Positions 4,630 to 7,112 of a DNA stretch of 24,000 bases are shown here, one piece after another. The notes beneath the pieces are model-generated. The model did not search any database and had not been told where the DNA came from. It was given only the letters and a program-made list of their open reading frames with translations. The first letter of the stretch is position 1. The number at the start of each line of letters is the position of its first letter. Both the position numbers and the translations under genes were made by a program. Origin of the DNA: Candidatus Pacearchaeota archaeon (GTDB lineage: Archaea; Nanobdellota; Nanobdellia; Pacearchaeales; GW2011-AR1); NCBI GenBank assembly GCA_041659945.1, contig JBAZXH010000001.1:593903-617902 (forward strand), in the 5' to 3' direction.

Positions 4630-5787
4630 TTATAGATATTTAACAGGAATAACTGCTGCATGCTTTCCATCTGAAAAAAGTCTTGATTCTCTAAATACTC
4701 CTAAATTATGTCTCCAGTCTTTTCTAGCCTCACCTAATACTAATAATTGCACTAATGAATAATCAGCCTTTTTCATAAACCTATAAACTCCGTGATGTAG
4801 GAAATTCCAATCAAAGTTATCTGAGCAAAATACTGAAAGGCTACCGAATCTTTGATGAAGAGGATATGATTCTTCTATTTTATGTGGTAATATTAATCCG
4901 TAAGGCTTGTCTATTGCTTCGGGTTTATCAATGTAAAATGAAACTTCAATACCTTCTTCAGGAGTAACTCCAAAACAGGACATAGCAGTCATAATTGGAA
5001 AATCCTTACCATGAATATTCCAAGCTCTTTCATAACTTTTGGCTGGTTGGAAAGATTTAAATGGTCTCGCCTGAAAGAACAATAAAGGTCTAAGTCCAAA
5101 TTCTATTTGTTGTGCAAAAGAATCATCTAAAATTCCACTTGTTTCAAGTTTCTCATACATTTCAATTGCTTCTCTAATTTCCTTATCTTCTATTTCTAAT
5201 TCCGAGCTATGGTGCCAGTAACTTGATTCTTCAAGTTCTGCATGTGAAACAGGAGCACGACCCATCAGATTATTGTCAGTTATGTCTTTATATTGTATCA
5301 TTAATTTATTAGTGTTTGGGTGTCTAAGCATAGAACCAATTATCGGCGATGGTGACTGTTCTTGAATTAATATATGTGCTTCAGGAGTATATGGTTGACC
5401 CCAATCTTCACAATGAACTCTTAGTCCTTCATTCTCTCTAGAAATGTCACCTACATAAACTCCTGGTCTGACAATATAATGTTTACCTAACATAAAAGAT
5501 TCTATTTTTTCTATTGCTTCTTCCACACTTGTATGTGTTACATCTCTAAATGTTGGAATAACATCAATAAATCCGTGATAGTCATTTGGATGAGAACCTC
5601 TTACAATTAATGGTTCTCGCATTCTTTGAATTTCTGGCATTACAGAATCTAAACTCTGTCCAGCATATTTCCAAACTGAACGAGGTATAGGAATATTAGT
5701 TCCCTCTCTCTCTCTCTCTAATAATGCTCTTATTATTTCCAATTTACTTCCGCCACGATTGATTTGTTCTTGTGTTATCATTTTCAT
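4630..5787 (-). CDS. PPDK_N-like (PEP/pyruvate-binding type) ATP-grasp domain protein, paralog B
   Basis: GGSKLEIIRALLEREREGTNIPIPRSV resembles GGKxxNL..G(L/I)PVPxGF. PLIVRGSHPNDYHGF resembles VAVRSSxxxED..SF. QIEFGLRPLLFFQARPF resembles (D/E)(I/V)EWA...L(Y/F)ILQxRP. The start overlaps the upstream stop (TAATG). Confidence 0.55.
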   Translation of the reverse strand: MKMITQEQINRGGSKLEIIRALLEREREGTNIPIPRSVWKYAGQSLDSVMPEIQRMREPLIVRGSHPNDYHGFIDVIPTFRDVTHTSVEEAIEKIESFMLGKHYIVRPGVYVGDISRENEGLRVHCEDWGQPYTPEAHILIQEQSPSPIIGSMLRHPNTNKLMIQYKDITDNNLMGRAPVSHAELEESSYWHHSSELEIEDKEIREAIEMYEKLETSGILDDSFAQQIEFGLRPLLFFQARPFKSFQPAKSYERAWNIHGKDFPIMTAMSCFGVTPEEGIEVSFYIDKPEAIDKPYGLILPHKIEESYPLHQRFGSLSVFCSDNFDWNFLHHGVYRFMKKADYSLVQLLVLGEARKDWRHNLGVFRESRLFSDGKHAAVIPVKYL

Positions 5788-7112
5788 TACCAGACAAATA
5801 CTCCATCTTCATTACAAAGAACATCTAAATTATCTCCAGTACAAATTTCATTTCTATAAACCATATTAATTGGAACAAGAACTCCATTATGAGTGTATAT
5901 ACTTTCATTACTAGATAAACGGGGTTTACTCTCTCGTGTTTCAGTTGGATATTTTGGCTTATGAGAAAATCTGTGACCAAATCTGCTTTCATCATCTACA
6001 TCTATGTAAATTATTGCTCCACCCGTTTCAACACTATTCCAAGATTCATGTCTAACAACTGACTGAGCTTTACTTCTCATTTGAATAACTCCACCTTTAA
6101 GAATATCATTAAGATAGGCATATCTTTCTTCACGGCTTGCAAATGGTTTTTCAACTCCAATTAAATCTATTAATTCTTTTAAGACTACAACATACTTTGG
6201 ATTATGAGTTCTAAATTCTGCAATCTCTGCTTGATATTGTTGTACTAATCTTCTTTTTTCTTCTTCAGTAGACCATCTTTGTTCTGGGAATACCTCTCTT
6301 AATTCATCTAATACTAAAACAGGTCCTCTGAAAGAAGCATATCCTTGTGCATGCAATCCTGTAATCATAGTGCTATATTCAGGAGGTCTTGCTAAACTTC
6401 TAGGGTCAGTTAGTTCTATTTCTTTTGCTTGAAATACTTGCAACAATCCTTCTTCATTAATTCCTGCTTCTAGTTGAACTGGTTTGCCAAAAAGTTCTTC
6501 TACTCTTATTCCAACTTCACCAAATTGATTTATTGCTTCTAAATTTTCATCATTAAAAAAACCAGTACTTTTTATTTTCCTTGAAGGTTTATCATATATT
6601 TCCCATCTACCCTTAGCCTTTATTCCATCCCAATAGTTAAGTATCATTTCGTTAGGATTATTCTGTGCAGATGTCATAAACATTCCAAAAAATCTATGTC
6701 TGAAATTTGGTGTAAACATTACATTCATTGCTTCAGGATTAAAATCTGTTATTACTTGCTCTTCAATATATTGTCTAACTGCCTCGCTTCTTGCACTTTG
6801 TCTAATCTCTTGATAAGATTCTCTTATTCTTTCAGGCTCATTAGGACACCAGTCACTTAAAAATTTTCCTGAAAAAGGATGCTTACCAGATTCCATTGGA
6901 TGACAGCTTCTAACAATTAAATCATCACCAAGAGTTAATGATGCTTCAACAATACTATCTTCAAGAGTTGTATCCGTAGAACCATCACTTAAAACTGTAA
7001 AAAATCTTGGTATAGGAATCCCTGCTCTTTTCATTACCATAAGATTATATGCTTTAGGTCCCACTACTTCTCTTTGCGGTAATTCATCTGTATCCCAAAT
7101 TATTCTTTTCAT
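5787..7112 (-). CDS. PPDK_N-like ATP-grasp domain protein with divergent swivel-like C-terminal domain, paralog A
   Basis: VGPKAYNLMVMKRAGIPIPRFFTV, LIVRSCHPMESGKHPFSGKF, MNVMFTPNF..GMFMTS.., and QLEAGINEEGLLQVFQAKEI fit the PEP-synthase/PPDK nucleotide-binding domain. The C-terminal ITGLHAQGYASFRGPVLVLDE...GGVIQMRSKAQSVVRHES resembles the PEP-utilizer mobile domain, with a His in a non-canonical context. No PEP/pyruvate TIM-barrel domain. Confidence 0.65.
   Translation of the reverse strand: MKRIIWDTDELPQREVVGPKAYNLMVMKRAGIPIPRFFTVLSDGSTDTTLEDSIVEASLTLGDDLIVRSCHPMESGKHPFSGKFLSDWCPNEPERIRESYQEIRQSARSEAVRQYIEEQVITDFNPEAMNVMFTPNFRHRFFGMFMTSAQNNPNEMILNYWDGIKAKGRWEIYDKPSRKIKSTGFFNDENLEAINQFGEVGIRVEELFGKPVQLEAGINEEGLLQVFQAKEIELTDPRSLARPPEYSTMITGLHAQGYASFRGPVLVLDELREVFPEQRWSTEEEKRRLVQQYQAEIAEFRTHNPKYVVVLKELIDLIGVEKPFASREERYAYLNDILKGGVIQMRSKAQSVVRHESWNSVETGGAIIYIDVDDESRFGHRFSHKPKYPTETRESKPRLSSNESIYTHNGVLVPINMVYRNEICTGDNLDVLCNEDGVFVW

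Follow-up and report, generated by a model that had tools for sequence, protein, structure and literature searches.

The 24,000-nucleotide stretch of DNA analysed here, which we call the window, belongs to a low-GC (about 30%) DPANN archaeon, Candidatus Pacearchaeota, and encodes, among other proteins, ribosomal protein L15e, TBP and an ATP-dependent DNA ligase. We focused our attention on two adjacent genes of its reverse strand, A and B, whose products are identical to the entries WC796_03630 and WC796_03625 of a Candidatus Pacearchaeota metagenome-assembled genome. We describe them as two new, highly divergent members of the phosphoenolpyruvate (PEP)-utilising dikinase superfamily, which lack the PEP/pyruvate barrel and carry non-canonical His domains. 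The genes, their domains and the region upstream of A are arranged as follows, PPDK_N being the nucleotide-binding domain family of pyruvate phosphate dikinase (PPDK):

5787..7112, reverse strand: gene A (WC796_03630), an intact open reading frame (ORF) of 441 aa, minimal dikinase-like, member of the family called here the A family
6378..7112, reverse strand: A residues ~1-245, PPDK_N-type ATP-grasp domain with K20, R68, E215, Q228 and K230
5790..6377, reverse strand: A residues ~246-441, C-terminal His domain, putatively swivel-like, with the His355 codon at 6050-6048
4630..5787, reverse strand: gene B (WC796_03625), an intact ORF of 385 aa, probably 383 aa from the ATG at 5781, minimal dikinase-like, member of the DPANN family called here the B family
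5038..5787, reverse strand: B residues ~1-250, divergent PPDK_N-type ATP-grasp domain with K15, R63, E229, Q239 and R241
4633..5037, reverse strand: B residues ~251-385, C-terminal domain whose invariant His332 (codon 4794-4792) opens a helix
7113..7239, reverse strand: upstream intergenic region of A; a TATA-like TTTATAA lies at 7187-7181, and the putative leader has two small hairpins

The two ORFs lie exactly where an earlier reading of the letters (the sequence-only reading) had placed them, and all the motifs it quoted were found in the translations: VGPKAYNLMVMKRAGIPIPRFF, LIVRS, QLEAG..LLQVFQAKE, GYASFRGPVLVLDE and QSVVRHES in A, and GGSKLEIIRALLEREREGTNIPIPRSV, LIVRGSHP and QIEFG..LLFFQARP in B. 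They go beyond chance resemblance because they fall on invariant columns of the families and line up with residues of the ATP site in genuine PPDK_N proteins. The genes are tightly packed, with 0-5 nt between them on one strand; their junction, ...GTC TGG TAA TGA AAA TG..., contains the TAATG overlap reported before. However, the more likely start of B is the second ATG, at 5781, which is the start in the NCBI model (383 aa), in the family consensus MITxExI... and in the related contig L005, and the genes are therefore probably separated by a gap of 5 nt instead of overlapping. Stand-alone homologs of B have a TATA-like box ~25-30 nt before the start. The B gene of the window has no TATA box of its own, and only the coding sequence of A is found at that place; as judged from the sequence, A and B are therefore probably co-transcribed as an operon. 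The hairpins in the leader of A were not significant (z = -1.39), and an Rfam scan of both flanks, including the region upstream of A, gave no match.

The proposal that both N-terminal halves are PPDK_N-type ATP-grasp domains is supported by profile-profile matches, by predicted structures and by the invariance of the ATP-site residues. In Pfam searches, A matches PF01326 (PPDK_N) with an E-value of 1e-5 and 25.4 bits, just under the 27-bit cut-off, and the B protein of the window has no match at all; PF01326 is matched weakly by five of 50 B-family members, among which no other ATP-grasp Pfam family was recovered. When profiles were aligned with hhalign to a reference of nine proteins of ~800 aa with Pfam-confirmed PPDK_N and PEP-utilizers domains, A matched canonical PPDK_N at 99.9% (E 4.7e-31) and B at 97.0% (E 9.9e-11), each over ~215 columns. 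Membership in PPDK_N is thus seen at the profile-profile level only, and neither A nor B passes Pfam's own threshold. A HMMER search started from A reaches proteins similar to rifampin phosphotransferase (RPH) at E 3e-13, and the pair gives weak sequence matches to PEP synthase and PPDK models. Single-sequence searches of the PDB returned only a marginal match, of A to HpeI, and a PDB sequence search with the B-family profile returned 0 matches.

Compared directly by BLASTP, A and B match weakly (E 0.053 over 51 aa), such that their homology is clear only at the profile level, where the N-terminal domains match at 97.7% (E 1.3e-12). The two proteins had been called paralogous, which holds in the sense of distant homologs of one superfamily; they are not, however, a local duplication, and they belong to two different families. 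Within the A family, K20, R68, E215, Q228 and K/R230 are invariant in every member that covers them, and within the B family G13, K15, R63, S65, E229 and Q239 are present in 50/50 sequences and R241 in at least 90%. We take the site residues of A and B to be the counterparts of K22, R92, E323, Q335 and R337 of PPDK, on the basis of the hhalign alignments and of the mutagenesis of Ye et al. (2001).

The AlphaFold2 (AF2) models have a pLDDT of 82.7 and a pTM of 0.82 for A, and of 91.9 and 0.91 for B, and Foldseek comparison of the two models with the PDB gave a probability of 1.00 for RPH, PPDK, HpeI, Ddl and RimK. The top 14 PDB matches of the A model are all PPDK_N-type (RPH, PPDK, HpeI), among them the RPH ATP domain 5hv6 (E 9.6e-10), PPDK 1kbl and 1dik, and HpeI 9goj (E 6.2e-9). 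For B, DdlB was ranked first (E 6.2e-7) and RPH 5hv1 second (E 7.5e-7), with RimK and PPDK 1ggo also among the matches.

Both proteins end in a further domain with an invariant histidine. According to the sequence-only reading, a swivel-like domain was added only to the upstream protein; in fact, B too has a C-terminal domain, of ~130 aa and modelled at high confidence, with the invariant His332. H355 of A, in the context Q-S-V-V-R-H355-E-S-W, is kept in 36/36 A-family members covering it, including the modules embedded in giant proteins. H332 of B, in the context N-F-L-H-H332-G-V-Y-R-F-M-K-K, is invariant in 50/50 B-family sequences, as is G273, and G279, Y335, R336 and K339 are nearly invariant (at least 90%). 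In both models a beta-strand is followed by a helix whose N-terminus lies at the invariant His or directly behind it, the order in B being strand 317-322, helix 332-340 and strand 343-351. Foldseek aligned A to full-length PPDK over ~600-610 columns with a query TM-score (TMq) of 0.47-0.50, compared with 0.41 for the RPH ATP domain alone, and B to PPDK 1ggo over 557 columns with a TMq of 0.47, compared with ~0.30-0.33 for most ATP-grasp-only matches. Longer PPDK alignments and higher TMq are expected if the C-terminal domain overlays the central His domain of PPDK, and from the models both C-terminal domains may be swivel-like. In addition, the B profile gave a weak collinear hidden Markov model (HMM) match to one A-family member in three segments, the third of which pairs both invariant histidines (independent E-value 4.6, not significant alone).

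The proteins end at 441 aa (A) and 385 aa (B). A, B and all the relatives scanned gave no match to the PEP-utilizers_C TIM barrel (PF02896), which bears out the earlier statement that the pair has no C-terminal PEP/pyruvate barrel and so is not a PEP synthase; nor was any barrel-type ORF recognised in the window.

With modest confidence, we propose that A and B are separate, distantly related, self-contained minimal dikinases of the PEP-utilising superfamily, each with its own His domain and with no acceptor-binding domain. By analogy with PPDK, PEP synthase, RPH and the mycobacterial VadK, the ATP-grasp domain would bind Mg-ATP, the C-terminal His (H355 in A, H332 in B) would attack the beta-phosphate to yield phospho-His, AMP and Pi, and the small domain would then hand the phosphoryl group to an acceptor outside the polypeptide, either a partner protein or a small molecule. 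The conversion of ATP to AMP, Pi and phospho-His is established for PPDK, PEP synthase, RPH and HpeHI (PMC4844700, PMC12167813).

Several results weigh against this proposal. The motif that surrounds the catalytic His in the superfamily, GGxT(S/C)HAA(I/V)(I/V)(A/S)R (PMC12167813), is not present in the C-terminal domains of A and B, from which already its canonical core GGxT(S/C)HAA(I/V) is absent. PF00391 was not matched at E<=10 by the full proteins or by their excised C-terminal domains, and hhalign of these domains against 11 canonical swivel domains gave a probability <2%. With neither PF00391, nor a canonical swivel domain, nor the consensus motif matched, the term swivel-like therefore stands for an inferred likeness and not for a demonstrated membership. 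Moreover, the C-terminal domains of A and B showed no similarity to each other by hhalign, and a greedy full-length alignment did not rescue it. The single best Foldseek match of B is a D-Ala-D-Ala ligase and not a dikinase. Finally, the A-B junction is found in two lineages in which A is only 55% identical, and B in the window is without its own promoter.

The last point asks whether A and B belong together. When 28 related loci (L001 to L028) were scanned with HMMs, about 9 had B but no A and about 15 had A but no B: B stands alone at L001-L004, L007-L009, L018-L020 and on the P0008 contig, and A at L010-L017 and L022-L028. The A-B junction is found elsewhere only in L005, L006 and L021, which represent one lineage, with an A 55% identical to that of the window; in the other loci examined by these scans, an A-like neighbour of B was absent. 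At these three loci the nucleotide identity to B is ~88-91% and ends abruptly after ~66 nt (~22 codons), such that B is cut to an ORF of 75 aa (L005:1842-2069, L021:5310-5537), and the gap between A and B in this second lineage is 1 nt. Past the cut B, on the opposite strand, lies a tyrosine-recombinase-like gene of 388 aa that has no Pfam match and was assigned by eye from R...HxxR...Y-type motifs. The end of B at these loci looks like an insertion or rearrangement breakpoint inside the gene. Since B is truncated and A intact in the second lineage, A was kept where B was lost.

In view of this distribution, and of the complete ATP site and own His domain found in each protein, the notion of one enzyme split into two subunits is not supported; A and B are two separate families usually encoded apart, and probably not halves of one enzyme. 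A related possibility, which we consider rather unlikely, is that the operon is the functional unit and that A and B together make up a heteromeric dikinase of two proteins, or a phosphorelay, in which one protein would autophosphorylate and pass the phosphoryl group to the His domain of the other, or in which the ATP-grasp domains would alternate as in the PPDK dimer. The close packing of the genes and the lack of a TATA box in front of B, unlike in its stand-alone homologs, are consistent with such an arrangement, as is the recurrence of the A-to-B junction in a second lineage with its 1-nt gap, and two-component dikinases such as HpeHI, CreHI and PpsAB are known (PMC12167813). As the junction occurs in two lineages and B has no promoter of its own, some functional coupling of A and B is possible. 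However, each protein has the complete set of ATP site and His domain, whereas HpeHI and PpsAB divide these tasks between their components; B stands by itself in about 9 further DPANN loci, A does so in about 10 or more loci and also occurs within giant proteins, and in the only other junction B is truncated whereas A is intact. If A and B are separate dikinases, as we prefer, an A-bearing segment may have come to lie directly upstream of B, displacing the promoter of B and making the A-B operon.

The B family comprises 55 homolog clusters, whose named sources are Pacearchaeota, Woesearchaeota, Nanoarchaeota or simply 'archaeon' (all DPANN archaea), and no Pfam annotation was found among its members. 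Stand-alone B genes are chromosomal and occur across DPANN, and their context is varied and mostly housekeeping, with aminoacyl-tRNA synthetases, eRF1, L7Ae/S28e, NifU/NifS and gyrase among the neighbours. The closest B homolog (48% identity), at L018:1027-2157, is directly preceded by a Phage_integrase gene (28-972) in the same orientation. Taken with the window and L021, this locus is a hint that mobile elements may insert preferentially in the 5' flank of B-family genes. No att-like duplicates of the 5' end of B were found in any locus, nor tRNA-linked direct repeats in the window, and the 5' end of B is no more than a candidate integration site.

A different chemistry, which we regard as unlikely, would make A or B, and B especially, an ATP-grasp ligase or kinase with ADP-forming acyl-phosphate chemistry like that of Ddl or RimK, the conserved His being then structural or substrate-binding and not a phosphate carrier. 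It is the Foldseek list of B, with DdlB at its top and many Ddl, RimK and LysX structures behind, that points in this direction, together with the failure of the C-terminal domains to match PF00391. Nevertheless, the same list has a rifampin phosphotransferase in second place and PPDK as its longest alignment, and the sole profile recovered is PPDK_N, by Pfam in the five B members mentioned and by hhalign over the whole domain. Motifs specific to PPDK_N are also present, namely GxK at the extreme N-terminus, VRxS and E..Q-x-R-P, and the N-terminal pre-ATP-grasp domain of classic ATP-grasp ligases is absent here.

The A family, with 99 representatives at E<=1e-3, occurs in two forms, as stand-alone proteins of 410-490 aa or as complete modules in far larger proteins (1,000 to >4,000 aa) encoded by Omnitrophota, Elusimicrobia and Candidatus Obscuribacterium, with HATPase_c as a further domain in some of these proteins. 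Giant ORFs with a complete A-type module, from 1,589 to >4,013 aa and with all the invariant residues kept, were seen at L011-L017, for example L013:700-7710, L016:1-12039 and L011:2327-7093. In Obscuribacterium, two matching A loci on one contig (L016, L017) gave identical search and HMM statistics, and a Micrarchaeota copy of the family is located at L015. Two A-family genes are split into two ORFs, at L024 (3986-4795 and 4976-5446) and at L015 (6046-6468 and 6507-7427), possibly because of a frameshift, a stop codon or faulty assembly, and they may be pseudogenes.

On low-GC, DPANN-like contigs, stand-alone A genes sit in variable, island-like settings: the neighbours are a tyrosine integrase and a nucleotidyltransferase/HEPN pair at L023, a recombinase-like 387-aa gene and an N6/N4 DNA methylase at L027, a PIN toxin at L022, and a type I HsdS and a NikA-like protein at L021. 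No partner gene recurs beside A across the loci. Neither A nor B had a match in PADLOC or PHROGs, which give no evidence of a known defence or phage family, and no relatives were found in IMG/VR viral contigs or in phage and plasmid records. The integrases, toxin-antitoxin genes, DNA methylases and HsdS near A, and the fusion to HATPase_c in giant Omnitrophota and Elusimicrobia proteins, are the basis of a more speculative idea, very doubtful in our opinion, in which the A family would be a hitherto unrecognised phospho-His signalling or conflict module of mobile and defence islands, placed here before a host B-type dikinase to form a two-step His-to-His phosphorelay of PPDK-like parts. Such an island-borne phosphorelay, if true, would represent a signalling design with no relation to classical two-component systems.

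That the pair is a fragmented or decaying ppsA or ppdK has next to no chance of being right, in spite of the weak matches to PEP synthase and PPDK models and of a true PPDK gene that happens to sit on the related contig L005, because A and B are both intact, each has full-length homologs of the same size and architecture that form a conserved family with invariant residues, an ATP-grasp domain is present in both, which is not expected from one split gene, and no barrel remnant was found in any neighbour or relative scanned. The PPDK gene in question (L005:4291-5850, reverse strand) encodes a central His domain with GGMTSHAAVVARG and the barrel, 2.5 kb from the A homolog; the GC content of this contig climbs from 0.31-0.35 to 0.36-0.41, and the presence of the PPDK gene there could be a coincidence or the product of a chimeric assembly.

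The nearest surroundings of the pair in the window include the following genes:

7240..7494, reverse strand: small winged-helix protein of 84 aa upstream of A, with weak MarR, ArsR and PadR-type matches (E ~1e-3, all below cut-off)
2839..3591, forward strand: serine recombinase (resolvase), convergent with B, in an island-like stretch (Pfam Resolvase, E 6.4e-21)
72..542, forward strand: short ORF that resembles only the C-terminal half of a tyrosine integrase (Pfam Phage_integrase, sub-threshold at E 1.2e-4)

The pair was said to sit between a mobile element and a dedicated-looking regulator. The resolvase and the integrase fragment on one side and the winged helix-turn-helix (wHTH) gene on the other agree with this, but the word dedicated is not supported, as the wHTH gene is not found upstream of the only close A homolog (L021). 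An ORF of 74 aa with two CxxC pairs (zinc-ribbon-like) at 7580-7804 of the forward strand is divergent from the wHTH gene and overlaps alternative long ORFs of the opposite strand, which start with TTG and are probably spurious. From position 1 to 11830, up to a tRNA-Glu gene at 11839-11913 on the reverse strand, almost all ORFs are without a family match; the segment contains the integrase fragment, the resolvase, a YdjM-like membrane protein and several wHTH proteins, one of which, at 11063-11830, is weakly Csa3/CasR-like. This segment looks like a variable island bounded by tRNA-Glu, although no att repeat was found within the window. Farther away, 16555-21048 of the forward strand encodes a protein of 1,497 aa with PEGA, dockerin and LamG (concanavalin-like) domains, a putative surface or adhesion protein typical of episymbiotic DPANN.

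Horizontal acquisition of the pair had been suggested from an excess of Arg over Lys. The count for B, 24 Arg and 20 Lys, is correct, and A has 32 Arg and 21 Lys. However, the GC content at third codon positions (GC3) of the two genes, 0.14 and 0.18, and their AGR arginine codons match those of the host, and several core genes of the window also have at least as many Arg as Lys. The excess is therefore a property of the protein families and not evidence of recent transfer, and codon usage rules it out as a sign of horizontal acquisition.

No current Pfam or NCBIfam model recognises either family at its curated threshold, and both keep an intact PPDK-type ATP site, with the canonical swivel replaced by a compact non-canonical His domain. 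If the invariant histidines carry phosphate, few known dikinase-type phosphotransfer units would be as small as A and B, and the two would be candidate agents of a new chemistry, regulatory or modifying, in ultra-small cells. Members of the B family are dispersed over the DPANN archaea, in whose reduced genomes many proteins have no known function, and the A family ties the mobile islands of DPANN to giant proteins of Omnitrophota and Elusimicrobia. Autophosphorylating kinase activity in barrel-less relatives of PPDK (VadK), and the phosphorylation of small molecules by split dikinases (HpeHI), were shown only recently, and we regard the present finding as a lead for enzymology rather than a mechanistic surprise.

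Among known proteins, RPH (5hv1, 5hv6, 5fbs; PMC4844700) gives the best or near-best structural match to the ATP-grasp domains of A and B; however, at ~850 aa it also comprises a large domain that binds RIF and, at its C-terminus, a canonical PF00391 swivel, and A and B have neither. PPDK and PEP synthase share with them the PPDK_N domain, and the Foldseek alignments run across the nucleotide-binding and central His domains of PPDK, whereas the TIM barrel, the canonical His motif and a helical insertion subdomain of the size seen in PPDK are absent from A and B. The best full-length viral structural match of A is gp139 of Bacillus phage G (BFVD G3MBK5, 365 aa, uncharacterised), aligned near full length over 395 columns with E 3.5e-13 and a target TM-score (TMt) of 0.61. 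Sequence similarity to gp139 is not detectable, and tblastn against phage records found nothing, but the model match suggests another compact protein of the same two-domain build, which may be a viral dikinase-like protein.

HpeHI, CreHI and PpsAB (phenylphosphate synthase) resemble the pair in that separate polypeptides of the RPH/PPDK superfamily are encoded side by side, and HpeI (9goj) is among the best structural matches of A (E 6.2e-9). In these two-component dikinases, one component is an ATP-grasp domain alone and the other has the swivel and a substrate-binding domain of the rifampin-binding type, with the canonical CH/SH motif (PMC12167813). A and B differ in that each joins an ATP-grasp domain to a His domain, with no substrate domain and no genomic co-occurrence.

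VadK (Rv1127c) of M. tuberculosis is a PPDK truncated to its ATP and His domains that works as an autophosphorylating histidine kinase (PMC13400623). It is a recent derivative of PPDK, in which the central catalytic His domain is retained (PMC13400623), whereas A and B are far more divergent, sub-threshold or silent in Pfam and with no PF00391 match, and have 441 and 385 aa versus ~490; in fact, their weak Pfam and NCBIfam scores argue against a close relatedness to PPDK or to Rv1127c. In architecture, however, VadK resembles A and B, with a PPDK_N ATP domain followed by a His domain and no PEP/pyruvate barrel, and the likeness would extend to Mg-ATP-dependent autophosphorylation of the His, which we presume for A and B, and to an acceptor outside the polypeptide.

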